NCBI RefSeq assembly: GCF_004010195.1 | Contig: NC_057755.1 | Coordinates: 759,581-823,580, forward strand | Origin: Chiloscyllium plagiosum | Taxonomy: Eukaryota | DNA length: 64,000 nucleotides | Direction of reading: 5' to 3' | Shown: piece by piece, positions 3,010-58,234 of the stretch | How positions within the stretch are numbered: position 1 is the stretch's first letter | Layout: every line of letters starts with the position of its first letter | Translations under genes and position numbers: made by a program | Notes under the pieces: model-generated | What the model was told of the DNA's origin: nothing | The model's input: only the letters and a program-made list of their open reading frames with translations | Databases searched by the model: none

Positions 3010-5212
3010 AAACATAACATAGAACATAGAAGAATACAATGTGGAACAGGCCCTTCGGCCCTCGATGTTGCGCCTACCTGTGAACTATTCTCAGCTCGTC
3101 CCCTACACTATCCCAAAATCATCCATTTGCTTATCTAAAATTGCTTAAATCTCCCGATTGTGGCTGAATTGACTACATTAGCCTCTATTCCTGATAAAGG
3201 GCCTTTTCAGTCGATTTTCCTGCTCCTCGGATGCTGCCTGACCTGCTGTGATTTTCAAACACCCCTTTAATCTACAATAGCAGGTAGGGCATTCCACGCC
3301 CTTACCACTTTCTGCGTAAAGAACCTGCCTCTGACATCTGTCTTAAATCTATCACCCCTGAATTTGTAGTTATGTCCTTTCGTATAAGCTGATGTCATCA
3401 TCCTAGGAAAAGGTCTTTCACGGTCTACCCTATGTAATCCTCTGATCATCTTGTATATCGCTATCAAATCCCCCCTTATCCTTCTTCTTTCCAATGAGAA
3501 CAGATCCAAGTCTCTCAGCCTTTCCTCGTAAGACCTTCCCTCCAGACCAGGCAACATGCTGGAAAATCTCCTCTGCACCTTTCCCAATGCTTCCACATCC
3601 TTCCTGTAATGAGGCGACCAGAACTGTACCCAATATTCCAAGCGTGGCCGCACCAGCGGTTTGGATAGCTGCAGCATGAGATTGCGGTTCAGGAACTCAA
3701 TCCCTCTACTGTTGAAACCTAATACACCGTATGCCTTCTTAACAGCACTATCCACCTGTGTGGCAACTTTCAGAGATCTATGCACATGGACACCAATATC
3801 CCTCTGCACATCCACACTACCAAGAAACCTTCCATTGACCCAGTACTCTGCCTTCCTGTTGTTCTTCCCAAAGTGCATCACCTCACATTTATCTACTTTG
3901 AACTCCATTTGCCACCTCTTAGCCCAATTCTGCAGTTTATCCAAGTCCCCATGCAACCTGTAACATTCTTCCAAACTTCCACTACTCCACTAACTTTTGT
4001 GTCGTCTGCAAATTTACTAATCCATCCACCTGTGCCTGCGTTTAAGTCATTTATAAAAATGACGAACAGCAGTGGTCCCAAAACAGATCTTTATGGCAAA
4101 CCAATAGTAATATTTTCCATCAACCACCACTCACTGCCTTCTTTCAGAAAGCCAGTTTCTAATCCAAACTGCTAAATCACCCCCAATTCCATGCCTCTGC
4201 TTTTTCTCCATCAGCCTACAATGTGGAACCTTATCAAAGGCTTTACTGAAGTTCATGTATACCACGTCAACTGTCCTACCCTCATCTACATGCTTGGTCA
4301 TCTTCTCATAAAAAACAGTGAGGTTTGTGAGACACGACTTGCCCTTGACAAAACCATTTTGACTATCTGAATTCAAATTGTTGCTTGCTGGATGATTAAA
4401 AATATTATCTCTTATAATCCTTTCCAAAACCTTTCCTACAACAGAAATAAGTCTCACTCGTCTATAATTACCTGGGTCATCTCTGCTGCCCTTCTTAAAC
4501 AAGGGCACAACATTTGCAATCCTCCAATCCTCAGGTACTAAACCTGTAGACAATGTCGACTCAAATATCAAAGCCAAATGCTCTGCTATCTGCTCACTAG
4601 CTTCCCAGATAATCATCGAGTAAATCCCATCGGACCAAGTGGACTTGTCCACTTTCACTCCTTCTAGAATTGATATCACCTGTGCGTAAATAACCTCAAT
4701 ACATTCTAGTCTAATATCTCATACATTGGTCTGCTCATCTACAATACTCTCCTTTTCCTGAGTGAACATCGATGAGAAATTTTCATTTAGCATCTCTACA
4801 GGGTCCACACTCAACTTCCCACTTGTCGTTGACTGGCCCTATTCCCACCCCAATCATACCTTTATTGGTCACATACCTGTGGAAAGCTTTAGGGTTCTCT
4901 TTTATTCCATTTGCTGAAGATTGCTCGTGTCCTCTCTTTGCTCTTCTTAACTCTCTCTTTAAATCCTTCCTAGCTGATCTGTAACTCTCCCTCGCCTCAT
5001 CTGTACTATCTTGCCTCATTAACACATCAGCGTTCATCTTCTTCTTAACAAGCGATGCAATTTCTGTAGTAAACCACGGTTCCCTAACCTTACCACTTCC
5101 TCCCTGCCTGACAGAGACGTACCTATCAAGGACACGCAATATATGTTCCTTAAACCAGCTCCACATTTCGATTGTATGCACCCCCTGCATTTTGCTAACC
5201 CATTCTATGTTT
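3010..5212 (-). mobile_element. 5'-truncated CR1 LINE (copy B) nested in ORF1 of copy A
   Basis: The 3' tail (ttctatg)n appears as aacatagaacatagaa at ~3011-3030. RT motifs include VPEDWRIANVVPLFKKG, GPLLFVIFINDL, SKFADDTK and RPRLEYWVQFWSP. The copy A esterase sequence resumes at ~5213. Confidence 0.92.
3183..3271 (+). mobile_element. Short Penelope-derived insertion (one arm of the palindromic family, decayed hammerhead motif) inside CR1 copy B
   Basis: Matches the right arm of the 14266 element (ctgctcctcggatgctgcctgacctgctg). It is flanked by a 10-bp duplication, ctacattagc (3173-3182) / ctacaatagc (3272-3281). Confidence 0.8.
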
Positions 5213-6528
5213 TCTACCCTCAAGGACCTGCTTTTAAATTCCTGCCTAACCTCTTATATTCGTCCTTCAGAACTTAATCTTTTTCCTTCCTATGTCGTTA
5301 GTTCCAATGAGCACAATGACGTCCTGCTGGTCCCACTCCCTTTGAGAATATTCTGCATCCTCTCTGAGATATCCTTGATCCTGTCACCAGTGAGGCAACA
5401 GGCACTCTTGGACACAGAAACATCGCTTGAGCCTCTGACGACAGAGTCCCCAATCACAATCGATCACTTGGAAACTGACGTACCGCTCGGTATATTAGAG
5501 CCAGACTTGGCACCAGAAACTTGGCTGTTCGTGCAAAATTCCCCTCAGAGTCCATCACCCTCTCCATTTTCCAAAATATCATGCATGGTTTAGATGGAGC
5601 AAGCCACAGGAGGACCCTGCACTACCCACCTCACTATCCTATCTTACCTGTAAGTAACCCATCTACCTGACTCTATTTGTGTTTTTCTCCCTTCCTGTAG
5701 CTGCCATCCATCACACTGCCTAACACCTAGAATTTCCTCATTGCCTCCAACTGCTGATCCAACTGTTCCATGTGATCTGATAGGATTCACAAACAAACTC
5801 ATTTAATATAGCCATAATCATCGGTAACATGGAAGCTTTCCCTAATATTCCACATCCGACAGGAATAGTACATCACACTGCTAAAAACCATCTTTGCACC
5901 TTAATAATCTGCAGACCCAGAAAATACCACAGACTTACTGCTCTAAAAGACACAGCTCCAGGCTAAAGTAGTAACTATTCTGTACATTTTTACATTTTAA
6001 TCAAGTGAAAGATCTTAATAAAGCCTACAATCAAAAATAAATGACTCTACTCACTGTTGGAGATTTACGAAAAGAATGTCAGCAAGATTACAATTAAAAA
6101 CCATGCATTTGTCTGGTCCTGTGCTGTGAACTCTCCCACACAGGTTCCTCCAAGTTCAGTTGTGATTTCTCACTGTTAATTTTTCTTAAATGCACTCTAA
6201 TGCTCAGAAATACATGAACTCAAAAGGCAAATGCAGCAGCTGTGCAGCTTCACTGGTGTGTCAGAAAGCAGTGTAGTTTGCTTTACTCCCCCCAACCTCT
6301 CTCTGTGTCTCTCAATGACCAGTGGTCTCTAACTTTGCCTTTGTTCCTCCTTTTTAAAATTGTGTTGCTTTGAACTTTCTTTTCCCCAAGTTTCCAAAAC
6401 AATGCAACAGCTTTCAAACAATAATAACACCTCCAGGATTTTGTGGATGTCACCTCTGACACCTAAAATACTGCAAGAAAAGAGCAGCTCTTCCAGCCAC
6501 AATCTTTTCAGGTCCTCCAATTCGGATT
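5213..6528 (-). mobile_element. CR1 copy A, 5' part: ORF1 (zinc-finger/coiled-coil/esterase) and 5'UTR
   Basis: Its reverse complement is similar to ORF1 and the 5'UTR of the + strand CR1 at 48180-49700. For example, aatccgaattggaggacc at the 5' end corresponds to aatccaagatggaggacg. Confidence 0.85.
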
Positions 6529-6689
6529 GCCTGGAAGTTCGCCGACTCCCCATGTGAAATTCGATTTAATTCTCCACAGTGTTCCAATGGTGGATACAGG
6601 CAAAATAGACCCAGGCCATTTAACGCACCAAGTGCATTCACTTTAACACTCTTCAGTCTTTCTACACTCCCATTACAAATACACTAACG

Positions 6690-8892: not shown

Positions 8893-8988
8893 GTGGAAGC
8901 AGGTCAATGGGCCCATCGAGTCCACACCGACCCCGCAAAGGTCATCACACCTAGACAGCAACAGGGTGCTGAGCCACTGTGCCACCCT
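8893..8988 (-). mobile_element. Internally deleted HE1-type SINE
   Basis: The HE1 3' part (gagtccacaccgacc) is joined directly to the HE1 5' head (agccactgtgccaccc). Confidence 0.6.
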
Positions 8989-10152
8989 GTATACCAGCAT
9001 TGACACCCCAATACCATCTATCAAACACTGGAATCTTATTTTATTTCAGTGTCGTACTTCCCTTGCCTTTGACCATTTGGGAATTAAATTACAGTTGTTG
9101 AGTGAGTCTGAGAAACGTTCTCCTCAATACTGGGATGTGGATTCCCTGGTTTTCAGCGGCTGCTCTGTGAAGGAATTGTAGTTGGTGAACGGAGGTGACA
9201 CATTGTAAGTTGTAATAATTCAAACGTTGCAATGCAATTCCTCAACTTGCACGCATACAGCTTCTGAATCAAATATAACATCTCCAATTCAGGCAAGAAT
9301 TGAAACAACTAAAACTAGACTCTGACAAATGCCCATAAAGGTGATATAAGTTCCATTCAATACAGATCCTCATACTAGGATACGAGTGTCCTAGACATGT
9401 TTCGGACCTGCTCTGAGACACACACGATCTGTGCAGCAGCACATGGGGATGAGGTATTCTCTGTTCCCTGCAGTGCGTTGCACATGCACAGAGAAGAAGC
9501 CTAAAACATCTGACTCATAATATGATGGAACATTTTTAAGTGAGACGGTGGATTGAGGCCAGAGAGGGATTTGCACACACAAGGATGCAGAAATGTCAAA
9601 TTCTGGAAATATTTAAGTAGGTGTCACTGTTGTGATGAGACCTGTAGTGATGGAGAAATTGGACTTGGTGTGAGGACTGATGAAGGACAGAAAACAGAGA
9701 GCAGGAATAAATGCGTCATCGTCACGTTGTCAGGTTGGTATTAGTGATTGCCACAAGGATCATTTATCCAGACACAGCCATTGATAATCTCTATCAATGA
9801 ATGAGATAAGGGATCATGTATGACGTTTGTTGACAACACAATGTTGGGTGGAACAGTAAAAGACAAGGAGGAGATTGAAACTCTGAGAAGTGCAAGAACA
9901 GGTTTAGTGAGTGAATGAACACGAAACATTCTGTGCAATATAATGTAGAGATATGTGAGGCATTTTTCATTCATTTCTGTCTTGGAAAGATTTCAGATCA
10001 CTGATAAACTTACAGATGCTTATCCTCGTCCTAAATCAAGAGGCAACAAGAAGTCTTGCGGTCCATTCAATGCCAGTAGTTCCCATTATTTTCTTGAAAA
10101 CTTTACTCATCTCAGACCCTTCTAAATTTGAGGAATTCAACCCTGGATTTGT

Positions 10153-11610
10153 GTCATTTCAGTACCTCATCATTGAATCCTTGCTTTCCAGCGATCATTC
10201 TGGTCAATCGATGCTGCACTCGCATTGACGTGGACTTCCAAAGCACCGGTTTTGTTTTTGTTTTTCCCTATTTATAAAGTCAATTCGCTGCTGTGTTAAC
10301 ATCAATTGGCAGCAGTGGACAAAGCAAAAATGATGCACTGACTCTTTCAGAACCATCAATCCTCACTTGACAGGGTCCAGTATGGTATATTGTCTCAACA
10401 GTGCCTCGGGTTGAGTAAATCACAGAAAAAAACTTCAGCACAATAATTTGTGTGGGTGGACTGTAGGTTGGACAGGGGTGGGAGCGGGCAAGTGTGGAAA
10501 GTGAAGAGCCCGAAGTCCTTGTCCACAGTGGCACCAACTCTGTTTGGTGGCGAAAAAACCCTGAGTCTGGCATTCTGTCATTACAAGTTCAGAGCCTTTG
10601 ACAGAAATCTGTCACTGAGTCAGGATTTCACCATCTCAATATACCTGACATTCGCTCTTTAGAATCAGCTGTCTCCCTGATTGTCCCAGATTAACAGCCC
10701 CAGTCAGGGATTTCATATCCAGTAATTTCCAGCTGGCTGACCTCATAACTATCATTACCAGGAGAAAAACCAATGAGTTTCTGAAAGTAGAGGTCAGCAA
10801 ATCAGGCAAAAATTGAAAAGATGATCCGTAGGTAACTCCGATTGCTTATGAGGCCGAATAACGTGTGGCTGGGTCATTTCAGTACATCATCATTGAATCC
10901 TTGCTGTCCAGCGATCATTCTGGTCAATCGATGCTGCACTCGCATTGACGTGGACTCCCAAAGCCCCGGTTTTGTTTTTGTTTTTCCCTATTTATAAAGT
11001 CAATTCGCTGCTGTTTTAAACTTCAATTGGCAGCAGTGGACAAAGCGAAAATGATGCACTGACTCTTTCAGAACCATCAATCCTGACTTGACAGGGTCCA
11101 TTATGGTATATTTTCTCAACAGTGCCTCGGGTTGAGTAAATCACAGAAAAAAAAACTTCAGCACAATAATTTGTGTGGGTGGACTGTAGGTTGGACAGGA
11201 GTGGGAGCGGGCAAGCGTGGAAAGTGAAGAGCCCGAAGTCCTTGTCCACAGTGGCAGCAACTCTGTTTGGTGGCGAAAAAACCCTGAGTCTGGCATTCTA
11301 TCATTGATAACCACTTATTTACAAATTCAGAGCCTTTGACAGAAGTCTGTCACTGAGTCAAGATTTCACCATCTCAATATACCTGACATTCGCTCTTTAG
11401 AATCAGCTGTCTACCTGATTGTCCCAGATTAACAGCCCCAGTCAGGGATTTCATATCCAGTAATTTCCAGCTGGCTGACCTCATAACTATCATTACCAGG
11501 AGAAAAACCAATGAGTTTCTGAAAGTAGAGGTCAGCAAATCAGGCAAAAATTGAAAAGATGATCCGTAGGTAACTCCGATTGCTTATGAGGCCGAATAAC
11601 GTGTGGCTGG
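10153..11610. repeat. Recent head-to-tail tandem duplication (10153-10872, 720 bp; 10873-11610, 738 bp)
   Basis: Both copies start gtcatttcagtac and end acgtgtggctgg. They are nearly identical; copy 2 carries an extra ~15-bp segment near 11306. Confidence 0.97.
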
Positions 11611-12479
11611 AAACACAGTTTCTAGCAGGAAGGACTTTGGAGGTCTCAATCATTGGAAATGTTTCTCAGCCTGGGGCGATATGTATAACTTTTGATTTCT
11701 TTTTGTTTCAGTTGGTTGGGGTTTGGTAGCCAGCTGGGGAAACATGCTCCATTTGCTGAGGAACATTCAATCAGATCTCACAGAGGTTTGGGAATCTGGA
11801 ATCAATCTCAGTTCGGAAGGAAATGAAGTTGGCCATCGGAAGTAGACAATATTTGATTGAAAGAGAAAGGCAACATAATCACATCCTGGATCTCTTAAGA
11901 TGCTGTGCTTTTGAACCCTAGTCTTCAGGATTGAACTCTTCCGTCCCGTGCCTCACAGATTTAGGGACAGATTTCTTACCAGCGAGGTGCTAGTTGATTT
12001 TCAGGAGATCCTCAGTAACATATACGTTAAGTGATGCAGTTACTGTCAAAACCTAACTTCTTTTTTCATTTTGTCTATATGACGATGTGCGAGGTATTTG
12101 TTCAGAAACTGACTGAAGGAATATATCAATGAGTTTAACTCGTCGCAAGCGCCCAAGAATCTAAAGCCATAATGCACATTGAATGGACTATTTTATTATA
12201 TCTCACAGCAATTAATTGACACAACAGCACAGATGTAAGCAGGAAGTAATTTCTTAAACTGTCTCCAAAAATTACGGACAAAATGAGACAGCTCTGTGTA
12301 ATAATATTATTGCATTTGGGAAGATTGATCATAAAATGTTTACATTGTTTATTTAGATGGAGAATGAAGAAATTGAATTTGAAACTCAGAGCCCTCAATG
12401 CAAATAGAGAGAACAGTAAGGAATTGAAACATAAATTGGTAAAAATGGATTGAGTTCTCAGTGGATCGGCAATGGCTAA

Positions 12480-13320
12480 TGAATCGCAACAATTATTCAG
12501 TCACCTCTAGGAAACTAATCAGACAGGAAAGCTGGTAATGGGCAGTGCTGCCTGATTCCAGGACGGTTCGGGAAGCTTTCTGATTCCCTCCCATTTACTG
12601 AGAATGCACAAATGCTGTTGGTGCAAACCAGGCCAATCCAATTGCAGCTCTCGTCCCCAAAGCCAATTTTGGAGATTATACACATGTGTTGGTGTGCTAT
12701 TTCCTGTCAAAGGCCTTTTCCTCGTCCAGGCTGATAAGGCTGGTTTCCAACCTCACTACCCCTCACATAGACACTTATATCATTGAGGAGTGCGAAACTC
12801 TCAGAGACCATCCTTTCCAGTACAGCACGGGTTTGTTCGGGATGAATCACTGATCCCACAGCAGACCTGAGCTAATTGGTGATTGTCTCAAATAGGATTC
12901 TGGAAACCACATTCAGTAGTGGAACCGTTCGTCAGTCCTTCATGTCCTCCTTGGAATTGTAGATGCGAGGGATGATAACTTTCCCGTTGTATTCACACAG
13001 GCTACGGGTTCGAAGCATACTGTTGTACACTTCCAGCAGGTCCAAGCCAATCAAGTGCCACAGAGGTGAAAACAATTCAGGTGGCAAACCATCACTTCTG
13101 GAAATTGTACTTTTTCTAAGGACTTGAGGGCCTTGGGTTGTTCCTCCAGATGTCACTGCTGGCATAGACTCCCCCGTCTGTTGTCGTCCAGAACTTCTTG
13201 ATAGATGACAGGAACAACTGGGAGGCCACACCGTCAGTGGGCTTCCTGTCATATAGACTGAGATCAAAGGATGTGCTGATCCTCAGTACGTTCTTCCCGG
13301 TGGTCACTCTCTCAGCAACA
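12480..13320 (-). mobile_element. L1-Tx1 clade RT fragment
   Basis: KSTISRSDGLPPELFSPLWHLIGLDLLEVYNSML..KVIIPRIY matches the Tx1 KSPGxDGLPxEFY region. Confidence 0.8.
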
Positions 13321-13659
13321 ACTCTTTTAATCGAGACTCATCCGAGAATTAACCCCAAGGCCTAGCGTCACTAGCAAACAAAGATTGTTTGGTCTGTTCC
13401 TTTTACCACAAGTTGTCTCAAAGGTCAGAATTTACTCTCAGCAAACAGTTCTCAGTTCACGGCTAGAAACGTCTTTTATTAAAATAATACACGTAAGAAA
13501 AAGCCAGTGAAGGTTCTATCATCTCTGGTCCCCATCATTTCTGGTGTATTGTTCACCTTCTCCTTTGGGAAGTCTCTATGGGGATATAAATAAGAAGGTT
13601 TTAGAGGGATGTGGGCCAAATGGGAAAATTTAGGCTATCTGATCGGCATGGCTGAGTTT

Positions 13660-13935
13660 AATTTGATTCGTTTTGATTGATTTAATGTCACATGCAGAGA
13701 ATTACAGTGAAACACTTTGTTTATGAGCAGTACGGGCAGACCATTCTAAGCAACGATGTACAGAAGAGAATATTTCGACAGAGGCATACAGGTTACATTG
13801 CACAGTGCGTACAAGATAGATCAGTGTTAAGAATGTCAGCATTACTTGAGTCAAGGGAGTCAATTCAGTAATCTAATAAGAGCTGGGCAGAAGCTGTTCC
13901 TGAACCTGCCGGTTTGTGTGTTCAGACTTCTGTGC
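13660..13935 (-). mobile_element. Rex-Babar LINE 3' end with (aatca)n-like tail
   Basis: gaagctgttcctgaacctg (antisense of RFRNSF). The paralogous copy lies at 53330-53750 on +. Confidence 0.65.
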
Positions 13936-14265
13936 TGCAGCCTCTTTGGTTTGCGCTGGGATTGCAAATTCATCCCAAAGTGCTGGACGAGCTCAGCAGC
14001 GGACCCATATGGTCAGACACCGTATTGTTGGTTGGAAGAAGAAAAGCACAATTTTAACAAGAACTAATACAATATTGATGTTTAAACAGAAATTGCAACA
14101 AAACACAACAGGATCTACATACAAACATGAACATTTCTAATATACAACACAATTTAGATAAAAGTATCTTCAATACTAACAATATTTAAGTTCCAATGCA
14201 CAATATTATTACATGTAAACACAATCATCTCAAAGATTCAACTAAATTTGTACTGACACAAACAG

Positions 14266-14484
14266 AGCTGAAAAATGTGTTGCTGGAAAAGTGCAGCAGG
14301 TCAGGCAGCATCCAAGGCGCAGGAGAATCGACGTTTCAGGCATAAGCCCTTCTGCCCTGAAGAAGGGCTTATGCCCGAAATGTCCATGCTCCTGCTCCTC
14401 GGATGCTGCCTGACCTGCTGCGCTTTTCCAGCAACACATTTTTCAGCTCTGATCTCCAACATCTGCAGTCCTCACTTTCTCCCA
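14266..14484 (+). mobile_element. Palindromic Penelope-derived element with a hammerhead-like core
   Basis: ~90-bp inverted arms (14263-14352 / 14362-14451) plus a 3' tail. The core ctgaaga-a-gggc-ttat-gccc-gaaa-tgtc lies at 14357-14384. An 11-bp TSD, gacacaaacag, is at 14255-14265 and 14485-14495. Confidence 0.88.
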
Positions 14485-14649
14485 GACACAAACAGCTCCA
14501 ACGTACCGCAATACATTATGTATATTATACACGTAAAACATGATATAACGTGTATATGAAGGACTTGCTGGAAGGAATGAATGCACTTTTGCCAACTTAG
14601 CAGATTAAACAAAAATATTTGGGAAGGCAAGGTGACAGATTACATGCGC

Positions 14650-16089: not shown

Positions 16090-17900
16090 CCTGTCCGTCC
16101 TTGCCCTCTCGAGTTCCCTGTTCAGTGCATTTCTACACCCACTCAGCTGTGTTTTAAGCAATATCTACGATATCTCTGTGTCATACTTCCATCCATGCCC
16201 TGAGTTCATCTGTCTTACCTTACTCTTGCATTGTAAGAAATGTAGTTTAATTCATCAGAAGTCTGCTGTTACCTTGACTGCTTTGTCTATTTAAACTGGT
16301 CTCTTGCACTTCTGCACGAGCCTTAACCTTCTTTATTATCTCACGATTGTTTAGGGTGTGATGCCCATTCGAGACGAGATTAAATCCTCTCAATATCACT
16401 GGCAATTCTCGCCGTCGGACATTGTTTCCCACCATCGCCAGTTCTGATGACTTCACCACTCCGTCAAACTGTTCCTCGACCTTCAGTAATCTAAAGACTT
16501 GTCCACCGAGAATTCTGTTCTTCAGTACACTTAACGGACCTGTCATTCATTATCTATGCCCCCCGCTTATTGGACGTCCCGAAAGGCATTTCCTCACACT
16601 CATCAGAAGCAAATATCATTGTTATTACTCGGTGCAAATGGATATCAGCCTCTCCGCCTCACTATGGATAACATCCCCAATGTTTGTGTCATCTGCAATC
16701 TTAATAACCTTCTGCTTTCACGTCCAAGTCATTAATGTACATAATAAAAAGCAACGATCCCTGCACAAGTCACTGTGGGACACCACTGGTCAAATTCTTT
16801 CAATCACAATAACACCCTTCATCAACTTTCAGTCAACTTACCAACATGCCTTGGATCGAATGGGCTGGTACTTTTTGGAACGGCCTTCCATGTGGGATCT
16901 TGTACAAACCCTTACTGAATCCCATGGAAACTCCATCATCTGCACTGCTCTCATCTGCATTCTAGACATAATTTCAAGCAAACGGAAATGAATTCATCAG
17001 TCAGAATGTCCCTCTACCAAATCAGTGCTGACTGTTCCGAATCGGAATCTGCCTTTCCAACGGTTGAGTTATCCTCTTCCTGATAACAGTGATGTCATTT
17101 ACAGTCGAGGCTGGGTTAAGATACACAGATGGGAAGGTTTCAATAATTTCCACAATATTTATGTCAGACTAACTGGTCTGTAATGATATGATCTATCTCT
17201 GCTTTTTTCTTCAACAAATGAACTGCATCAGCTAACCTCTAGGTAATCTACACTTCACCTGTCGACAGCACAGCATTACATATAACCGACAGGGCCCCAG
17301 CAATCTTTCCCCTTGACTCACATAGCAGGCTGGGAGAAAGTTCATTGGGCACTGAGGATTTATCGACCTTTACGATTGTATAAATATGTAGCAACTCCTT
17401 GTGTTGATCTTAACATTCTCGAACTTTACTATGACAACTGAAACCCCTGGCTCCCTTATCTGTCTCCTTTGTGGATACAGATGGCAAATAATGAATTAAG
17501 AGGTTTAATGCTGCCTCTAGCTTCACGCACATATTGTCCCTTCAATTTCTAACAGACCACACTCCGTCCTCGCTAAACTCTTACTCTAACTATGCCTATA
17601 GTTAACCTTGCAGCTTTTGCTATATTGTATCTCCAACAGATTTCTCATACTCATTGTTTGCTGTTTATTTTAAGGACCCCCTTGCACTCTCTATACTGAT
17701 GAAGAACTTCAACTATTTTAATTACACTGTATGTTCTTTACCAAACTGACGATACCACTTGACATCTAGTATTCACTGGACTTATGGATTTTTCCATGAA
17801 ATCTTCGCAGAATACATAATCCCTCAATTCTGGCTCTTTCATTTCAAAATACCCATACTTTCAGAGTGTAATCTCAACTGCAAATAGTTCCTTGCAGGCT
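16090..17900 (-). mobile_element. Old degenerate CR1 fragments (ORF1 esterase and ORF2)
   Basis: Antisense remnants such as tttgtgtcatctgcaat (FADDT) and gtgggacaccactggt, plus an esterase-like stretch (LAMVGNNVRR) at 16250-16500. Confidence 0.65.
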
Positions 17901-18199
17901 ATGTTTGCAAGAAAAAAAAGTCCAGAATTATTTGGAAAAACCTCATCAAATGCGGCGGTAGATGTGGAGAGAAATCAGGGTAACTGTTTCGGATTGACCA
18001 ACCCTTTCTCAGAGCTATATTTACCAGATCCACTCTAATGAAAGTGGTAATGTTTAGTGACAGTGATAATCCAATATTAAATGGCGTCCCAATGTTTAGA
18101 CATTTTATGTCTGCAAAATCCTAATCTCATTCCATAACGAACTTTAAAACTTGGTGTTATCATCACTCTCGTGAAGGAATCTGCATAATTTCTTATGTA

Positions 18200-18870: not shown

Positions 18871-18929
18871 ACCTTCAGTTCATATAACTCATATGAAATT
18901 TATGACTTTATCGAATCTCTGCAATCGAA

Positions 18930-20075
18930 GAGTGTGGTGCTAAAAAACCAGTCAGGCAGCATCCGAGGTTCGGAGAGTCGACGTTTCGAACACAAGCACT
19001 TCATCAGGAATGAGGGGTGGCCCAAGGGGGCTGAGAGATAAATGAGAGGGGATGTGGCTGTGGGCTAAGGCCGCTGGGAATGCAATAGGTAGATGAATGG
19101 GGGAGGTGATGGTGATAGGTCGGAGAGGAGGGTGGAGCAGATAATTGGGAATGAAGACGGACAAGAAGGACAGTTCTACAGGGAAGTGCCGAGTTGGAAG
19201 ACAAGGTGGGGGGAGGGCAGACGGGGAAACGGTGAAATTACCTTGATCCTGTGTGTTTGGAGGGTTCTATGGCGTAAGATCAAGCATTCGTTCTCCAGGC
19301 ATCGAGTGGTCATTGTTTGGCGGCAGAGCAGGTCGAGGACTTGAATGTCCTTGGCAGAGTAGAAGGGGGCATTAAAGTGTTCAGTCACAAGGTGTGTTTG
19401 GAGCGGGTGTCCCGAAGATGTTATCTGAAACGTTCTGCAAGTTGGCATCCATTCTCCCCAATGTAGAGGAGAGCACATTAACAACAATGGAAACAGTAGA
19501 TGACGTGTGTGAAGGTGCAGATACATTTCTGACGGATGTGGAAGGTTCCTTTGGGGCCTTAGATGGAGGTGACGGGGTGAGATGTAGACACGCTTCACAG
19601 TTCCTGCGGCTGCAGGGGAAGCTGCTGGGAAAGGAGAGTGGGTTGGTGGGGGGCTTGGGCCTAACAAGGGACTCGCGAAGGGAATGTTTTCTCTGGAGCA
19701 CAAATCGGGGTGAGGATGGAAAATACAGCACCGGTGGTGGCGTTTATTTGTAGGTGAAGGAAATGTTGGAAGACGATACAATGTATCCGAAGGTTAGTGG
19801 TGTGGAATTTGAGGACCAGGAGGATTCTGTCCGTGTAGTGATTGGAGAGCTGGGGTTAAACGACAGAAGTACGGGAAGCGCTGGGGAGCATCGTCAACCA
19901 CTTGGGAGTGGAAATTATGTTGTGTGCAGAATGAGGCCATCTGGGATATTCTATGGTGGAATTGGTCCACCTGTAACAGATGTCACCAAGGCGGAGGAAC
20001 TGGGAATAAGGGATAGCATTTTTACAGGAGGCAATTTGGGACGAGGTGTAGTCCAGGTAGCTGTGGGAGTCCTCA
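18930..20075 (-). mobile_element. Penelope-like element (Neptune type): RT thumb, Cys linker, GIY-YIG endonuclease and pseudo-LTR
   Basis: HSYLDYTSS..SCKNAIPYSQFLRL; FPCSRRNCEAC; HLVTEHFN..DIQVLDLL..RCLENECLILRHRTLQ. A terminal hammerhead-like motif ctgatga...gaaacgtc lies on the - strand at ~18979-19007. Confidence 0.88.
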
Positions 20076-33904: not shown

Positions 33905-34105
33905 TCTTGTCTGCAGAAAAACAGAATTAAATGTTTAAGTCCAGTAACCGATCCTCAGAAGATTTTATTTTCCTATGAAGTTGTATTCCAGACACGAAAC
34001 ATTAAGTCTATTGCTCTCTTCACCGATGCTGTCTTACTGTTGAATTCCTCAAGCTAATTTTGTTTCTGTTCCACGTTTTCAACATCAACAGATGTTTGAT
34101 TTCTG
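33905..34105 (+). mobile_element. Degraded palindromic Penelope-derived element, a different family (related pieces at ~17915-18015, 53255-53310 and 63200-63255)
   Basis: Remnant of a ctgangaa...gaaacatt core followed by ctctcttcaccgatgctg..ctgttgaattc. Heavily decayed. Confidence 0.45.
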
Positions 34106-35518: not shown

Positions 35519-35573
35519 ATGGCCGCAGTATTCCAATTTCACGAATTGCGTATGTCTAGTCAGGATCCCATCA

Positions 35574-35780
35574 GTACAAAGTGAGGACTGCAGATGCTGG
35601 AGATCGGAATCGACCATGTGTTGCAGGAAAAGCACAGCAGGTCAGGCAGCATCCGAGGAGCAGAAGGGTCGACGAAACGGACATAAGTCCATCATCAGGA
35701 ATGGAGCGCTGATGCCCAAAACGTCTGTTCTCCTGTTCCTCGGATGCTGCCTGACCTGCTGTGCTCTTCCAGCACCACAC
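35574..35780 (-). mobile_element. Palindromic Penelope-derived element (same family as 14266, opposite orientation)
   Basis: Inverted arms gcacagcaggtcaggcagcatccgagga / tcctcggatgctgcctgacctgctgtgc. A degenerate 14-bp TSD is seen as tcaggatcccatca (35560-35573) / tcaggattcaatca (35781-35794). Confidence 0.85.
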
Positions 35781-36489
35781 TCAGGATTCAATCAACACAA
35801 TCACATGGATCTGAGTATAACACCCTGCTGTGGGAGCGGGGAACACGATGGGGCACCATTCACCACACACAGGAACACGCTGCTATCCCTGAATAACTGA
35901 TAGATTGACACACAGACAATTAGCAGCAGTAGGTCATTCAGCCAAAACGCCTGGTCCACCCACCATTTCAGAAGATCAAGACGCAACCAATTGTAGCATC
36001 ATATCTGCGTTCACATCTGCCCCTGATAACCACAACACCCCATCACACCTCTTCCCCCCAACAAAGCTTAACAAGTATCAATCCTTCTGCGCCTTTAATT
36101 ATTTAAGGGCATAACAAGGGATAGCAGTGAAGTGGAAAGTAGGTTACTGTGCGGGTGGGAGTGGAAGGGTGTGGTGGCGGTCGTGGAATGGACTTCAGCA
36201 GGATTTGACATGATGGACTCGCTGTGAGGGATGGGTTCAGCTGGAAACCCGGGTCTCCACGACCTGCCTTGTGGACAAGTGTTCAAGACCAGCAAGAGGA
36301 TTTCTCCTGCAGGCGAGGAGAGGTGGAGACAGAAAGATTCCCACTTGAACATTGATGATTGTCAGATTCGCTATGTTCAACTTGCAATGAACACTTTAAT
36401 ACAGTGAAAGGTTCTCTGTGCTTGTGGATCATCTCGCCTGAGATGCTGATTATTTCGTGCACTTTTGTTTAATTTTTAACGTGTTTCTT

Positions 36490-48180: not shown

Positions 48181-51100
48181 TAATCCAAGATGGAGGACGG
48201 AAAACACGTCTGGCTGTTACAGGCTTTTCATTTTTTGAGATATTTCAGGTGTTGGAGCTGATTTCCTCAAATTCCAGGACCAGCAATAACTGTTTTGCAT
48301 GTTGTTGCATTGTTGTTGAACTTTGGGATAAAAAAATGTCAAAACAACTTTAAAATAGAGAGGAACAGGCAAAGGAAACACTTGGTGAGGTCAGTGTGGG
48401 AGAGAGACAGAGAAAGAAACCCACATTGCTAACTGCACAGCAGTGAAACTGCACAGTTACTGCCTTCGTTGTTTGAATTCATGTATCGCTGGTCATAGGA
48501 GTATATCTAGGAAAATTAACACACAGTGAAGTTCACAACTAATTGTGGAGGAACCTGTTTTGGAGAGGTCATACCACAGAGACATAAAAGTGAGGAGTTT
48601 TAAGTGTGGCCTTGGGGAGTCTGCAGTACTGACTACAGTGGATTCATTCTTCATTATATGTTTTATTAAGGTACACCTCTTGATTAAACTTAAAAACATA
48701 AGACGTAAGTATGAAGTTAGCCTGGAGGAGTTTTTTTTTAATCAAACAAGATTGAAGAAACAAAACTGGCCCTTAGTAGAGCTGTATGCTCCTCTTGTCT
48801 GATGTGCGAGTTCAGAGAGAGTTTTACGTGTTACTGGAGATTATATCTGCAATACATGCCTTTGGTTGCGAATCCTATCAGATCAAATGGAACAGTTGGA
48901 GTCACAGTTAGAGGCAATGAGAAACTCACAAGGGCAAGGGTGTGTGATGGATTGCAGTTATAGGAAGGGAGAAGAGTCACAGATACAGTCACATAGATGG
49001 ATTAACTCTAGGAAAGGTAAGAGAGATAGGAAGGCAGTGCAGGAGGCTTCTGTGGCTATCCCCGTTTCCAACAAGTATGCGCTCTTGGAAAATATAGGTA
49101 GTGATGATTTCTCAGGGGAAAGTAGCACAAACAACCAAGATTCTGGTATTGAGACCGGGTGCATCAGGTTCCAAGAAGTGTGTTAGGGGACTCTGTAGTC
49201 AGAGGCACAGGCAGGCGTTACTGTGGCTAGCAGCGAAAAATCAGAACGTTGTGTTGCTTCCCTGGTGCCAGGATCAAGGATGTCTCAAAGAGGATGCAGC
49301 ATGTTCTCAATGGGGAGACGGTCCAGCAGGATATCATTGTGCACATTGGAACCAATGACATTGGAAGGGAAAATGCTGAGATTCTGAAGGGATAATACAG
49401 AGATTTAGGCAGGAATTTAAAAAGGAAGTCGTCGTAATATTTAGCTTACTCCCAATACTCCGAGCTAGCGAGAGTAGAAATAGGAGAATAGAACAGATGA
49501 ATGCACGGCTGAGCAGTTGGTGTATGGGAGAAGGATTCACATTTTTGGATTATTGGAATTCCTTTTGGGGTAGAACTGACCTGTTCACGAAGGGCGGATT
49601 GCATCTAAACTGGAAGGGGACTAATATACTGGCAGGGAGATTTTCAAGAGCTGCTCAGGAGGAAATAAACTATTCAGGTCTGGGTGGGGTAGGACCCAGA
49701 GAGATAGTGAGGAAAGAGGTCAATCTGAGACTGGCACAGTTGAGAAAAGAAGCGATCCAAGCACTCAGAGCAGGCAGGGACAAAGCAGAGAAGAAGGTAG
49801 GACTAATATAATAAACTCCATTTATTTCAATGTAAGGAGACCAACAGGGAAGGCAGACGAAGTTAGGGCATGGTTAGGAACATGGGACTGGGATATGGTA
49901 GCAATTACAGAAACATGGCTTAGGGATGGTCACGACTGACAGCTAAGTTTCCATGGCACAAATGCTACAGGAAGGACAGACGGGAGGCAAGAGAGGAGGA
50001 AGAGTGGCGTTGGAATAAGGGCTAGCATTGCAGCTGTACTGAGCGTGGATATTCCCGAAAATACATCCAGGGAAGTTATTTGGGAGGAACTGAGAAATTA
50101 GAAAGGGATGATCACCTTATTGGGATTGTATTGAAGAACCCTAATAGTCAGAGGTAAATTAAGAAACATATTTTTAAGGAGATCTCAATTATCTCAAAGA
50201 ATAACGGAGTGGTTGTGGTCGGGGACTTTAACTTTCCAAACATAGACTGAGACTGCCATTGTGTTAAGGGTTTAAATGGAAAGGAACTTGTTAAGCATGT
50301 GCAAGAAAAGTTTCTGATTCAGTCTGTGGATATACCTACTCGAGATGGTGCAAAGCTTGACCTACGCTTGGGAAATAAGGCAGGGCAGGTGACTGAGGTG
50401 TCAGTGGAGGAGTACTTTGTGGCCAGCGATCAGAATTCTCTTAGTTTTAAAATAGTGATGGAAAAAGATAGGCCAGATCTAAAAGTTGACGTTCTAAATT
50501 GGAGGAAAGCTAATTTTGACGGTATTCGGCAAGAACTTTCAAAGACTGATTGTGGGCAGATGTTTGCAGATAAAACGACGGCTGGAAAATGGGAAGCCTT
50601 CAGAAATCAGATCACGGGAGTCCAGCGAAAGTATATTTTTGTTAGGGTGAAAGGAAAGTCTGGTAGTTACAGGTAATACTGGATGACTAAACAAATTGAG
50701 GGTTTTGGTTAAGAAAAATACGAAGCATATGCCTAGTAGAGTCAACACAAATCGAGCGACCCCTCAGAAAAGTATAAATGCAGTAAGTGTACATTTCAGA
50801 GAGAAATCAGGAGGGAAAAAAGGGGACATGAGACTGCTTTGGGAAATAGATTTACGGAGAATCCAAGGTGTTTTTACAAATACATTGACGACAAAAGGGC
50901 AACTAGGGAGGAAATAGTGCACCTCAGCGTCAGTAAGGCGGCCATTCTGTAGAGCCGCAGGAGATGGGGAGATACTAAACAATGCTTGCTGTGAAAAAGG
51001 ACGTGGAAGGTATCAGATGTGGGGAAATAGATGGTGACATCTTGAAGAATGTCCATATTGCATGGGAGGAAGTGCTGGACGTCTTAAACGCATAAACGTG

Positions 51101-52273
51101 GATAAATCCCCCGAGCCTGGTCAGGTGTACCCTAGAACTCTATGAGATGCTAGGGAAGTGATTGCTGGGGCTCTTGCTGAGATATTTACATCATCACTAG
51201 TCATAGGTGAGGTGCCAGAAGACTGGAGGCGGGCTGACGTGATGACATGGTTTAAGGACGTTGGTAAGGACATTACAGGGAACTATAGCTCAGTGAGCCT
51301 TGCGTCAGTGGTGGGCAACTTGTTGGAGGGAATCCTAAGGGGCAGGATTCACTTGTTTTTGGAAATGCAAGGACTGATTAGGGATCGCTAACATGGAGTT
51401 GTGCGTGGGAAAACGTCTCAAAATTGATTGATTTTTTTGAAGAAGTGTCAAAGTGTAAATGAGGGCAGAGCAGTGTACGTGAACTATATGCACGTCAGTA
51501 AGGCATTTGACAAGGTTCCCCATGGGAGACTGGTAAGCAAGGTTAGATCTCATGAAATACAAGAAGAACTAGCCATTTGGATACAGAATTGGCTCAAAGG
51601 TAGAAAACAGAGGGTGGTGGTTCAATAACCTCATTGTGAGGATTGGAAATAAGGAATATTTGGTGAGGTTGTTTTTCAGATGGCAATCCTATGAAGTTCC
51701 ACAAATATCGCTGCTGGGTCCACTACTTTTCGTCATTAATATAAATGATTTGGATGCGAACTTACGAGGTATACTTAGGACGTTTGCAGATGATAAAAAA
51801 ATTGAATGTGCAGTGGTCAATGAAGAAGGCCACCTCAAATCACAACAAGATCTTGATGAGATGAGCCAATGGACTGAGGAGAGGCAGATGACATTTAATT
51901 TAATAATACTTATAGAGGTTTATAAAATCATGAGGTCGTTGGATAGTGTAAATAGACAAGATCTTTTCTCTGAGGTGGGGGAGTTCAGAACTAGAGGGCA
52001 TAGATTTAGGGTGAGAGAGGAAAGATATAAAAGAGACCTTCAGGACAACTTTGTCACTCAAACAGTGGTGCGTGTATGGAATGGGCTGCCAGGTGAAGTG
52101 GTGGAGACTAGTACAAGTGTAACATTTAAACAGCATCTGGGTGGGTATATGAATAGGAAAGGTTTGGAGGGATCTGTGCGGGGTGATGGCAAGTAGGAAT
52201 AGATTGGTTTGGGGTATCTGGTCGGCTTGAACGAGTTGGACGAGTTTCCATGCTGTACATCTCTATGACTCTA
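48180..52273 (+). mobile_element. Near-full-length decayed CR1 LINE (same family as copy A)
   Basis: 5'UTR; ORF1 with LRILSDQMEQLESQLEAMRN, GDSVVRG, HIGTND and GLHLNWKGTNILAGRF; APE with VAITETWL and VVGDFNFP; RT with VPEDWR, SKAFDKVPHGRL, LGPLLFVININDL and FADDK; a deletion near 51900; tail ctctatgactcta. Confidence 0.94.
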
Positions 52274-52314
52274 ATAGCGATTATTTCCAGCCTTAGTCAG
52301 TGTTGAGCAAGGAG

Positions 52315-52478
52315 TTCAAAATCACACAACATCAGGTTATATTCCAACAGATAACCACTTGATGAAGGAGCGGCCCTCCGAATGCTAGTGCTTCCAATTA
52401 AACCTGCTGGACTTTAATCTAGTGTTGTATGTTTTTCATCTTTGTACACCCTAGTCCAACAATGTCATCTCCAAATCT
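52315..52478 (+). mobile_element. Short Penelope-derived element with inverted arms around a hammerhead-like motif (distinct family; related remnant at ~61045-61090)
   Basis: Arms cacacaacatcaggttatattccaacag / ctgctggactttaatctagtgttgtatg. The core cac-ttgatga-a-ggag-cggcc-ctcc-gaatgcta-gtg is at 52356-52390. Confidence 0.72.
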
Positions 52479-52894
52479 TGAGCAAGGAGCCTTGCCTTCA
52501 GATGAGCTACCAACAAATGGCCTCATCCCTTCAAATTCCCAGAAGTCAACATTGAGTCTTTCTCTCACTCTGTTCATTGACACAATTATTTGCCTCCCTG
52601 TTGTATTGCCTTCCAGTATCACTTCTCTCCACCTCACCAAATATTCCTTAATCTCAATCCTTACTGTGAGGTCATTGAACCTAACACAAATTCCCAATCC
52701 TCATACTTTCCCTTTCCCATTTGCCTCGGATTTTACAACTGCAATAGTGTGGACTGACATAATGCCCATCTACTTTTGTTGTCCTCACATGAGAGGGGAT
52801 GAATGGACATCTGTTGTTCCCATCTGCCATCTCAAAATGAGTTAAATTGTCTCCTCAAATTCCTCTGTTACAGTTTCAAGAGGGTCTTTGTTTT

Positions 52895-53469: not shown

Positions 53470-56400
53470 AGGTGCAGAAGTCTGACACGCACACACCAGC
53501 AGGTTCAAAAACAGCTTCCGCCGAGCTGTTATTAGACGACTGGATGTGCTCGCTTGACTCAACTAATGCTGATCTTTCTAACACTGATCGATCTTGTACA
53601 CCCTGTGAAATGTGATCTGCATGCCTCTGTTTAAATCATTTGTTCTGCACCTCCTTATTTCGTGTGATCTGCCTGTTCTGCTCATAAACAACACTTTTCA
53701 CAGTATTTCTGCACATGTGACAGTAAATCAATTAAATCGAATCAAATCAAACTCATTCATGCCGATCAGATATCATACATTCTCCCATTTGTCTCATATC
53801 TCTCGAAACTCTTCTAATTCTTATACCCTCAGAGACTTCACAAAGAGAACGTGAACAATACACCAGAAATGATGGGAAGCAGAGGAGATAGAACTTTAAC
53901 TGACTTTTCGTTGTTTGTATTCTTTTATTAAAATGTGGTTTGAGATGTGGTTTGTGAACTGTTTGCTGAGAATAACTCTCAGCCTTTGAGATAACTTGTG
54001 GTAAAAGGACCAGACCATACAATCTTTGTTTGTTTGTGAAGCCAGGCCATGGGGCTAATTGTCAGATGAGTCTTACTTAAAAGGGTTTCTACTGATATAG
54101 CGACCACCGGGAAGAACATCCTGAGCATCAGCAAATCGCTTTATGCCAGTCTATATGGCATGAATGGCACAGACAGCGCAGCTTCCCAGTTGTTTTTGTC
54201 CTCTACTACGGAGGTCTTAGACGACAGCAGACGGGAGAGTCTGCACCAGCAGTTACCTCTGGAGGAGCTGCCCAACGCCGTCAAGTCCTTAGAAAAGAGT
54301 GCAATTTCCAGAACTGCTTGCCTACCACCTCAGTTGTTTTTACTTTGTGGCACTTAATTAACCTGGACCTGCTGGAAGTGGACAACAGTGTGCTTCAAAC
54401 AAGTAGCATTTGTTACTCCAACAAGAAAGTTACCATCCCGCTCATCTACAGTTAGAAGGAGGACAGGGAGGCGTGACAACCAATTTCACTGCTAAATGCA
54501 GTTTACAGAATCCTGCCTGAGATCATCGCCAACTAGGTCAGATCTGCTGAGGGATCAGTGATTCACCCCGAGAAGAGCTGTGTTCTACTGTGCAAGATGA
54601 TCTCTGAAAGCCGAGCGCACCTCAGCAATAAAATTGCCTACGTGTGGGATAGTGAGTTTGGAAACATGCCTTATCAGCCTGGACCAGGAGAAGGCCTTTG
54701 ACAGGAAATTGCAAGCCAACAATTGTGATGTACTCTTCAAAACTGGCTTTGCGATGAGAGCTGCAAGTGGATTCGACTACACTGCACCAACAGCATTGCC
54801 TATCCACTGAGAACTTAATCCATTTTTGCCCTTTTATGCATCAGTTCCTTGTTGTTCTCTTTACTTAGATTCAGGGGTCTGAGTTTCAAATTCAATTTCT
54901 TCATTCGCCATCTTAATAAACAATTTGAGCATTATGTGGTCTTTCTTACCAAATACAATAAAATTGTTACATAATGCTGTCTCATTTTGTCCGTATTTTT
55001 TTTTTTGCAAAAATACATATGAAATTGCTGCATGCTTATACCTGTGCTCTTCTGTCAATCTAATGCGGCGATATGGAAAACATTAGCCCTCTCAATGTGC
55101 ATTGTGGCTTTAGGTTCTTGGGCGGTTGTGAACAGTTCAAAATATTGATGTATTCCTTCAGTCTGCTTCTGAACAAATACCTCATACATCATCATAAATA
55201 CAAAGTAGAAAACAACTAGGTTTCGACAATAAAAGTATCAATTAACCCAAATGCCACTGAGGATCTTCGAAAATAAAGAAGTGGCGGACTGGTAAGAACT
55301 CTGTCCTTAAATCTTTGAAGCACGGGAGGGAAGTATTTGATCTTGAAGACTAGGATTCAGAAGCACAACATCTTAAGAGATCCAGAATGTGATTCTGCTG
55401 CTTGTCTACTTCCCATTTCCAGCTTCATTTCCATCAAAACTGAGTTTACTCCCAAATTCCCAACTATCTGACAGGTCTGATTAAATATTACCCGACAACT
55501 GTCGCATGTCTCCCCATCTGGGTGTTCCACAATTCAATTAAAACAAACGAAACGCAATGTATTCAGATCGCTCCATCCTGAGAAACATTTCCAAACATCG
55601 AGACGTCGAAAGCCCTTCCTCCTGGACCCAAAGTTTCCAGCCACACGTTCTTCAGGCTAATGGGCACTCAGAGTCACCCAAGGACAAGCTTTTCAGTTTC
55701 TTGCCGGATTTGTTAATTTCTACTTTAAGAAATGTATTGTTTTATTTCTCCTGGTAATTATTGTCATGAGGTCAGGTAGCTGGACCGTATTGGAAGTGAA
55801 ATCCCTGATTGGGGCGGTTACTCAGTATCAATCAGGGATACCTGGCTGATTCTAAAGGGTGAATGTCAGGGATATTGAGATGCTGAATACCTGACTCAGT
55901 TAGATGTTACTGTCACAGGCTATGTATTTGTAAATAAGTTCTGATTAATGACATGATGCAAGACTCTGAACGTTTAATGCCCCATCAAACATAATTGGTG
56001 CCAATATAGACCAGGACCTCGCGCTCTTCACTTTTGACAGTCTCCCGGTCCCACTCCTGTACCAACTACAGTCCCGCCTTCCTCCAAAAAAGTGCTAACT
56101 TTGTTATGAAACGTGCTTAAGACTGATCAATGTTGAGGCAATATATCATTCTCAACTGTGTCATGTCAGGACAGATGCTTCTGAAGGAGTCACTCAGTAA
56201 TTTTACGTTTATCCACTGTGTCACTTGATGTTAAAACAGCATTCGCTTCGATGTATAGAAACGAAAAACGAAACAACAAAAAAGTGGGGATGGGTTGTCC
56301 ATGTGCATTTGAATGCAGCACCAATTGACCAGAATAATCGCTAGCGAACGAGGATTCAATGATGAACAATAAAAACGAGGATTCAATGATGAAAGGATCT

Positions 56401-57100: not shown

Positions 57101-57433
57101 CAGGACTTTCTCATTCCGCTAGGCAGATCTGTATTGATTGGAGCTTACATCAGCATCGACAATCAAACTCAGTTAGGACGAAAGTGAAGCTGGAAATATA
57201 AAATTTGTGAGGAACGACAAAGCAACAAAAGCCATTGCTGCCTCCATGAAATTGTTGTGCTTCAGAATCCTGGCCTTTAGTATCAATCACTTCCCTCACA
57301 TGTCCCACGGATTCAGGGGCAGAGTTCTTTCGGGAGAACTGCATTTTAATTTTGAGGAAAGCCACGATAAGGCATGCGTTTAGTGACACAGTTACTGTGG
57401 AACTCTCACCTTCATTATTTATTATTTGTGATG

Positions 57434-58234
57434 TTGTGGTTCTGTTCGCCGAGCTGGAAGTTTTTGTTGCAAACGTTTCGTTCCCTGATTTGGCGACATC
57501 ATCAGAGCTTGGGAGCCTCCTGCGAAGCGCTTCTTTGATGTTTCCTCCGGTGTTTATAGTGGTCTGTCCCTGCCGCTTCCGGTTGTCAGTTTCAGCTGTC
57601 CGCTGTAGTGGTTGGTATATTGGGTCCAGGTCGATGTGTTTGTTGATGGAGTTTGTGGATGAATGCCATGACTCTAGGAATTCCCTGGCTGTTCTCTGCC
57701 TGGCTTGCCCTATGATAGTAGTGTTGTCCCAGTCGAATTCATGTTGCTTGTTGTCTGCGTGTGTGGCTACTAAGGATAGCTGGTCGTGTCGTTTCGTGGC
57801 TAGTTGATGCAGACAAGCAACATGAATTCGACTGGGACAAAATTACTATCATAGGGCAAGCCAGACAGAACAGCCAGGGAATTCCTAGAGGCATGGCATT
57901 CATCCACAAACTCCATCAACAAACACATCGACCGGGACCCAATATACCAACCACTACAGCGGACAGCTGAAACTGACAACCGGAAATGGCAGGGACAGAC
58001 CACTATAAACACCGGAGGAAACAACAAAGAAGCGCTTCGAGCCTCCTGCGAAGCGGCAGGGACAGACCACTATAAACACCGGAGGAAACATCAAAGAAGC
58101 GCTTCGCAGGAGGCTCCCAAGCACTGATGATGTCTCCTAGCCAGGGGACGAAACGTTTGCAACAAAAACTTCCCGCTCGGCGAACAGAACCACAACAACG
58201 AGCACCCGAGCTACAAATCTTCGCACAAACTTTG
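57434..58234 (+). mobile_element. Penelope (Poseidon-like) 3' fragment with inverted 5' arm, GIY-YIG C-terminus and hammerhead motif
   Basis: HQLATKRHDQLSLVATHADNKQHEFDWD..IIGQARQRTAREFLEAWHSSTNSINKHIDLDPIYQPL on the - arm, repeated on the + arm. The arms are near-identical. A 13-bp TSD, attatttgtgatg, is at 57421-57433 and 58235-58247. Confidence 0.92.
58121..58160 (+). ncRNA. Minimal type I hammerhead ribozyme motif (Penelope-associated)
   Basis: gca-CTGATGA-t-GTCTCCT-agcc-AGGGGAC-GAAA-CG-TT-tgc: intact catalytic core, 7-bp stem II, stem I gca/tgc and palindromic ACGT stem III. Activity is not shown by sequence alone. Confidence 0.8.

Follow-up and report, generated by a model that had tools for sequence, protein, structure and literature searches.

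The 64-kb stretch of Chiloscyllium plagiosum DNA analysed here (contig NC_057755.1; hereafter the window, within which all coordinates are given) contains a dispersed set of small palindromic sequences built around minimal hammerhead ribozyme motifs. We conclude that these palindromes are very probably dead, extremely 5′-truncated insertions of autonomous Penelope-like elements (PLEs), with an inversion that was built at each landing. Their unit is the 3′ end of an element (the hammerhead plus ca. 65–95 bp), found as two head-to-head copies with a tail on only one arm and with junctions that differ between copies. The sources represent at least three unrelated families, with a Neptune-type element for the group that we call family A, a Penelope/Poseidon-type element for the insertion at 57434, and a third family for that at 52315. 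An earlier note on this DNA had offered recurrent truncation or a self-propagating ribozyme element as the origin of the units; the former, together with inversion, is supported by the one-sided tails, the target site duplications (TSDs), the variable centres and a coding terminus. In all, the units are real but largely ordinary, being very common stumps of Penelope-type elements.

Structure of the family A insertions

We examined nine sites, at 14266, 25730, 35574, 3183, 18930, 33905, 17915, 52315 and 57434. The first five match one another with E-values of 1e-50 to 1e-6 and define family A, which is real, as the earlier note had proposed, although the set as a whole is less uniform than it had stated. 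A profile built from the eight family-A arms recovered those eight plus one weak match (63219-63251, E 0.003), while the best match in the reversed window, used as a control, had an E-value of 2.6.

Inverted arms were significant at five of the nine sites (14266, 25730, 35574, 52315 and 57434), with an E-value of 1.9e-6 at 25730 and with none of 500 shuffles reaching the observed score at 52315. The palindromic structure claimed for the short copies was not confirmed at 33905 and 17915, where 118 and 200 of 500 shuffles, respectively, reached the score. The copies at 3183, 18930 and 17915 are single arms without inversion. TSDs were evaluated with a test anchored on the element boundaries, using 3000 random site pairs as the null. 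We detected exact TSDs of 11 bp at 14266 (null fraction 0.0003) and 12 bp at 52315 (null fraction 0), a TSD with a 13-bp exact core at 57434 (null fraction 0), one of 14 bp with two mismatches at 35574 (null fraction 0.004) and a weak one of 10 bp with one mismatch at 3183 (null fraction 0.014). The reported duplications of 10–14 bp were thus confirmed at five of the nine sites, and the boundary-anchored test was negative at 25730, 18930, 33905 and 17915. At 14266, 35574, 52315 and 57434, a single TSD pair encloses both arms.

All the palindromes are arranged head-to-head, with the 3′ ends of the element facing outward and one arm longer than the other by a tail of 33–40 bp. This one-sided tail, overlooked in the earlier note and a diagnostic mark of PLEs (PMC3846280; PMC8557442), occurs at 14266, 25730, 35574, 52315 and 57434. 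The centres, in turn, are different in the three family-A palindromes. Counted from C3 of CUGANGA (+1), the arm starts lie at −1 and +5 in 14266, where a 2-nt filler separates them, at −1 and +3 in 25730, with 4 nt of filler, and at −5 and +4 in 35574, where the arms share a 3-nt microhomology. The features of these palindromes and of the single-arm copy at 3183 are as follows.

14255..14265, plus strand: left TSD of A14266, 11 bp, identical to 14485-14495
14266..14353, minus strand: inverted arm of A14266, no tail; begins at core +5, hence without CTGA
14354..14355, no strand: filler at the inversion junction of A14266, 2 nt
14356..14451, plus strand: sense arm of A14266; core 14357-14384, with T for the palindromic C at 14381
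14452..14484, plus strand: PLE tail of A14266, 33 bp, absent from the other arm; the sharp 3′ end of the whole family falls near 14482
14485..14495, plus strand: right TSD of A14266
25727..25932, no strand: old family-A palindrome; the inverted arm ends at 25817 and the sense arm begins at 25822, with 4 nt of filler between
35560..35794, no strand: palindrome including TSDs; element 35574-35780, tail on the left (minus-strand) arm
3173..3281, plus strand: single-arm copy including TSDs; element 3183-3271, starting at core −8

Of the 5′ strand of stem I, the sense arm of A14266 retains just 1 nt. In the palindrome at 25730 the arms are 65% alike and the tail, extending to ca. 25931, is decayed, whereas in that at 35574 the arms overlap by the microhomology at 35701-35703 and the TSDs lie at 35560-35573 and 35781-35794.

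Small rearrangements were also observed in these copies. Minor secondary inversions occur at 3183 and near 58040, the former being a micro-inversion inside the hammerhead (3191-3211), where the 5′ half of stem II, reverse-complemented, stands in place of the 3′ half and the GAAA. Another micro-inversion within a hammerhead, at 35670-35680, leaves TTT in place of AAA between CG arms. Additionally, the two arms at 35574 (35610-35620 versus 35770-35780) differ at two positions that are also variable between read subfamilies (14434 and 14439), which hints faintly that a single insertion drew on two templates.

A Neptune-type coding fragment ends in a family A arm

The link between family A and a coding element is provided by the copy at 18930.

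18924..20072, minus strand: broken, 5′-truncated Neptune-type PLE with the C-terminal part of the reverse transcriptase (RT), a CX4CxxC linker and a GIY-YIG region (about 19131-20071)

Its terminus is a family-A arm without tail or inversion, and it also includes the 3′ non-coding part and a hammerhead core (18980-19007) with a damaged stem II. The fragment (1.15 kb) matches the RT C-terminal, linker and GIY-YIG regions of shark proteins (E 9e-39) and is interrupted by stops and frameshifts. The linker reads CSRRNCEAC, in the frame 19381-19743, and is also present in the relatives P0002 and P0007. According to PMC8557442, a CX2-5CxxC linker before the GIY-YIG marks the Neptune and Nematis clades; the element at 18930 resembles them in this, and, being only a fragment, its linker fits either clade. 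Pfam gave no match in the six PLE fragments of the window that were scanned, whose identity is taken from homologues. Their nearest named protein relatives are from Chiloscyllium punctatum, Hemiscyllium ocellatum and Rhincodon typus, with 62–91% identity over the aligned parts, and long RT/GIY-YIG relatives are present in carpet sharks. The earlier note had seen in 18930 a Neptune-type partner that mobilises the short copies. The shared terminus and a linker of the Neptune/Nematis kind are borne out, but this copy cannot be an active partner because it is 5′-truncated and broken by stops and frameshifts.

Other families in the window

Two further palindromes, at 57434 and 52315, belong to families of their own, and two very decayed sequences resemble PLE ends.

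57421..58247, no strand: Poseidon-type insertion including TSDs; element 57434-58234, 13-bp TSD
52303..52489, plus strand: family-B insertion including TSDs; element 52315-52477, 12-bp exact TSD
33905..34100, plus strand: very decayed PLE-end-like sequence, a faint relative of family A (4/500 shuffles)
17900..18000, minus strand: very decayed single PLE-end-like arm, with weak likeness to 33905 and 63205-63273

The insertion at 57434 spans ca. 800 bp and consists of two arms of ca. 375–390 bp, both of which contain the C-terminus of the endonuclease (GIY-YIG; tblastn E 6e-56). The short copies had been described as devoid of open reading frames (ORFs), which fails here because both arms carry GIY-YIG coding sequence. 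Its cores are at 57505 (minus strand) and 58124 (plus strand, strictly intact), followed by a 35-bp tail at 58200-58234. Relatives of 57434 pass from the RT to the GIY-YIG without a CX2-5CxxC motif, and in this absence the element resembles the Penelope/Poseidon clade as characterised in PMC8557442. Its sense arm (57988-58106) contains a 52-bp duplication split by an inverted piece of ca. 15 bp, a template-switch scar. A piece of a Poseidon-type endonuclease end, 90% identical, also appears in the predicted Chiloscyllium host-gene isoforms P0015 and P0017 (MAP3K7 and a 5′-nucleotidase domain protein); these could be either exonised PLE ends or annotation artefacts.

In the insertion at 52315, a 36-bp inverted arm without hammerhead is followed by the sense arm, from 52351, with a tail of ca. 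40 bp; its core, at 52359, has two substitutions. This insertion and a long interspersed nuclear element (LINE) fragment are enclosed by 51-bp inverted arms (86% alike) that lie 961 bp apart (51619-52681). The termini of family A, family B and 57434 are unrelated in sequence, their scores being reached by 36, 474 and 315 of 500 shuffles. An origin from the end of an element encoding RT and GIY-YIG is established for family A and 57434, and not for 52315, 33905 or 17915.

The sites at 33905 and 17915 had been proposed as an additional palindromic family, which is not supported: their kinship is weak (15/500 shuffles), the inverted arm and the TSD of 33905 are not significant, and 17915 has neither an inverted partner downstream nor a TSD. 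Other very decayed PLE-end-like pieces were found at 63205-63273 and 61018-61092, with a weak relationship to families A/C (E 0.003-0.05) and to family B (E 0.2), respectively.

Family A in sequencing reads

We evaluated family A genome-wide in the raw reads of two DNA runs and one RNA run, plus a set of contigs (four of 24 candidates), using as reference the sense arm of 14266, a single 181-base stretch, at 80% likeness. Peak arm depth was 131,552 and 126,860 per 1,934 Mb read, equivalent to 66–68 family-A arms per Mb. Depth over the tail was 0.38–0.39 of this peak, a value that is probably too low, since the match to other subfamilies is clipped immediately ahead of the tail. The family has a sharp 3′ end, with 23,679 loose ends at 14482 whose continuations show an agreement of 0.34, corresponding to random flanks. 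At the 5′ limit of the arm, in turn, 36,006 loose ends continue into a coherent upstream consensus (agreement 0.56) ending in CCTCATT, as does the sequence upstream of 18930.

The reads contain 659 types of joint, 15 of which were listed in detail. The best-supported inversion joint among these 15 had 251 reads in run X11, or 0.5% of local and 0.2% of peak depth, and this count combines every junction that falls just upstream of the reference arm; the remaining 12 of the 13 listed inversion joints had 44–204 reads each. Likewise, depth across the centre of 14266 was only 0.24–0.27% of the peak. The earlier note had made shared centre junctions the test for an independent family, and such junctions were not found: the window shows three centres, and no joint type among those listed exceeds 0.5% of local depth. 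Since the 3′ ends are fixed and the centres variable, the reads argue for repeated truncation with inversion and not for an amplified palindrome.

Joints and loose ends at 14389/14390 were attributed to clipping where the reference copy has mismatches of its own, and not to breakpoints. The tail (33–34 bp; 14449-14482) is tandemly duplicated in a minor fraction of copies, as seen in go-back joints with 80 and 66 reads (X11), some with 1–5 extra letters, which suggests re-priming between two RT start sites.

Family-A reads per Mb were 46-fold rarer in RNA than in DNA, with the same identity spectrum; both strands were represented, the hammerhead strand in some excess. They fit read-through of random copies in the one sample available, which is single-cell polyA RNA. 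We observed no pile-up of read ends in this sample, which is blind to small, circular or cleaved RNA, and this result thus carries no weight on cleavage.

State of the hammerhead cores

A strict core descriptor (CTGANGA, a stem II of 3 bp or more, GAAA-N-N′-T-H) was satisfied once in the window, at 58124, against a mean of 0.025 in 200 simulated windows; none of the eight family-A arms passes it. The cores at 57505 and 19007 keep the core letters and have damaged stems II. Only at 57434 are core letters found on both strands, because in each family-A palindrome CTGANGA is largely or wholly missing from one arm, and the other arm carries mutations; the motif, which had been reported in several copies on both strands, is so arranged in that insertion alone. 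A loose CTGANGA..GAAA pattern gave 15 matches versus 6.4 expected, which is weak evidence, and an Rfam search at E≤5 returned four unrelated matches and no hammerhead, being uninformative for minimal cores.

The majority letters of family A in the reads, however, make up a complete minimal core with a palindromic ACGT (C at 14381, 80%; G at 14385, 85%; T at 14388, 97%), and the source element therefore carried one. The catalytic G12 is mutated in 13.2% of reads, compared with 11.9% for non-core CpG, indicating that it is lost by neutral decay after insertion. Additionally, the sequence 5′ of the cut site is kept in all copies, so the template RNA was uncleaved; cleavage is reported in PMC11167929 as not needed for insertion in vitro, and dimer cleavage of minimal hammerheads is attributed to Lunse et al., as cited in PMC6765202.

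Read-through of a palindrome had been expected to expose the core at the loop of a hairpin, and folding predictions contradict this. In the predicted fold of 14266 the GAAA is fully paired within the stem, and opening the core and stem II would raise the energy from −157.1 to −131.4 kcal/mol, a predicted cost of 25.7 kcal/mol. Both cores of 57434 are likewise predicted to be wholly paired.

Origin of the palindromes

A plausible route can be drawn by analogy with an Anolis Poseidon element, for which PMC11167929 reports nicking of both strands and two RT starts in vitro. An RT-GIY-YIG protein would make staggered nicks in both target strands, and cDNA would be primed from each nick at two internal start sites of the RNA, one with and one without the tail. 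Both cDNAs would stop early, and repair would then join their ends through filler or microhomology. Alternatively, the second arm might arise by fold-back self-priming of one cDNA, as proposed in PMC3846280, with a similar product. The hammerhead would be a passenger, located in the part of the pseudo-long terminal repeat (pLTR) that is copied first, on an uncleaved template and in copies that decay neutrally. Within this one window, insertions form a continuum of sizes, from ca. 90 bp (3183) through 800 bp (57434) to 1.15 kb (18930).

Several observations sit less well with this origin by truncation and inversion of full elements. Four of the nine sites have no TSD, the PLE sequence in the window consists of fragments, with no intact source element seen, and the two-nick model comes from work on a Poseidon element and not on a Neptune. 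Furthermore, the junctions are unevenly distributed: seven of the eight family-A arms start between −8 and +5 of the core, the sense arm of 52315 starts at −8, and position 14356 forms one side of ten of the 13 inversion joints listed (among the 15 of 659 joints). The reference stops matching the family at this base, so a hotspot there cannot be proved from the reads, in which junctions lying far upstream of the reference are also hard to detect.

This clustering would be accounted for if the template were itself short and single-armed, with RT starting at the 5′-most pLTR of a PLE mRNA or on a short non-autonomous pLTR transcript, and then running off or stalling at the 5′ edge of the hammerhead. 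The inversion would still be made at each insertion, and the proposal refines our explanation more than it opposes it; we hold it only tentatively. A crude estimate that some 40–50% of core-crossing reads follow the main upstream sequence over 30 nt (agreement of 0.56 versus 0.34) points in its direction, as does the report that in Anolis RT starts 111–118 nt into an ORF whose first bases lie at hammerhead stem II (PMC11167929). Nevertheless, that estimate is confounded by subfamilies and the reference is censored at 14356, a large share of copies continues upstream, 18930 and 57434 are cut far upstream, and the window sample amounts to five insertions. The possibility that the synthesis of PLE cDNA has a genuine termination hotspot at the hammerhead 5′ edge, either as the start of the mRNA or short pLTR transcript or through RT arrest and fold-back, is one that we consider rather doubtful.

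Much less credible is an independently amplifying, non-autonomous palindromic ribozyme element, similar to retrozymes, whose hairpin RNA is mobilised in trans. A density of 66–68 arms per Mb and the complete core given by the majority letters would suit such an element, and tandem non-LTR retrozymes derived from PLE pLTRs are reported in bioRxiv 10.64898/2026.07.22.740005, including in the one chondrichthyan sampled. But it is largely refuted by junction heterogeneity, with no centre shared in the window or the reads and junctions spread over hundreds of types. There is also no head-to-tail hammerhead pair in the window, the core is predicted to be locked in the hairpin, no family-A arm has an intact core and G12 decays like a neutral CpG. 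With 18930 unable to encode an active protein, the self-propagating palindrome mobilised by this copy, as the earlier note had envisaged, can be abandoned. Equally improbable is that the palindromes formed after insertion, by local inverted duplication or by a second PLE end inserting into a first, or that they are DNA elements similar to miniature inverted-repeat transposable elements (MITEs). In its favour, PLEs are said in PMC6765202 to insert beside existing copies, and there are the small secondary inversions at 3183 and near 58040. This origin is at odds, however, with the single TSD around both arms in four palindromes and with a tail asymmetry of 33–40 bp every time, and the MITE-like reading was rejected by the 10–14 bp TSDs of variable sequence and the homology to a coding PLE end.

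Other repeats in the window

Two tandem duplications of ca. 720 bp, 96–100% identical, are present at 10150-11610 and 58605-59543 and could be real or an assembly artefact. They adjoin or sit inside a repeat family of ca. 2.6 kb (11286-13921; 53487-55966, inverted; 58275-58910, partial). Retroelement debris at 44776-45168, 47741-48160, 49380-49811 and 3267-3989 comprises an LTR-type RNase H fragment, a zf-RVT fragment, a GDSL-esterase-like ORF1 piece and a weak RT match, and two related repeats occupy 38943-39436 and 45738-46222.

Comparison with known systems

The tested features of truncated insertions of endonuclease-containing (EN+) PLEs are all found here, namely a PLE 3′ end, an inverted copy, a one-sided tail and a variable TSD. 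In the Adineta Pen2a insertions described in PMC3846280, and in the scheme of PMC8557442, a 5′-truncated copy is likewise joined head-to-head to a shorter inverted arm; the Pen2a-type insertions also have a tail of 31–40 bp on one end, an enclosing TSD of about 9–10 bp and palindromes at the junction (PMC3846280). The shark units differ in that most have lost the whole ORF, are only ca. 100–220 bp long, reach ca. 67 arms per Mb and have TSDs of 10–14 bp. We found no account of these elements in sharks, although most subscription journals and Repbase/Dfam, which lay outside our search, may list them, as may the supplements of the retrozyme preprint (bioRxiv 10.64898/2026.07.22.740005).

The cores resemble the minimal type I hammerheads of metazoan PLEs presented in PMC4209133, with CUGANGA, a bulged base, stem II, GAAA, a palindromic 15.2–16.2 pair and no stem III; as read from sequence alone, they differ from these in a stem I of only 2–3 bp and in that the window copies are mostly mutated. 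In that work, Cervera and de la Pena (2014) reported mostly single motifs from truncated PLEs, plus pairs on opposite strands 100–700 bp apart, and the insertion at 57434 is similar to such pairs.

With animal non-LTR retrozymes the units share a non-coding nature, a type I hammerhead, a relationship to PLE pLTRs and long TSDs, as these are portrayed in PMC7229834 and bioRxiv 10.64898/2026.07.22.740005. However, the retrozymes of these sources are head-to-tail tandems with at least two hammerheads on the same strand and a circular RNA, whereas the shark units are head-to-head, with variable centres and buried cores. Head-to-tail units with two or more same-strand hammerheads were not found in the window, and the only go-back joints among the 15 of 659 listed were the 33–34 bp tail duplications. 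Nor is there a fixed monomer, since centres vary and the top joint among those listed represents at most 0.5% of depth. For annotation, hammerhead-centred palindromes of sharks thus belong under truncated PLE insertions, and not under MITEs or retrozymes.

The origin of inverted PLE ends is called still undefined in PMC8557442, and these insertions, at a density of ca. 67 arms per Mb, provide a data set of junctions, tails and TSDs with which to test how PLEs make them. If the accumulation of junctions at the hammerhead 5′ edge were true, the way in which PLEs insert would be linked to the ribozyme fold or to the point where the transcript starts. In that case, shark genomes would contain a natural archive of PLE insertions primed on two strands, with entries in six figures, and the fold of the ribozyme would shape their structure without any cleavage. 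Such an archive would show directly how the inverted pLTR and the tail arise, whether by two primings, as suggested by the Anolis element, or by self-priming, as proposed for Adineta.

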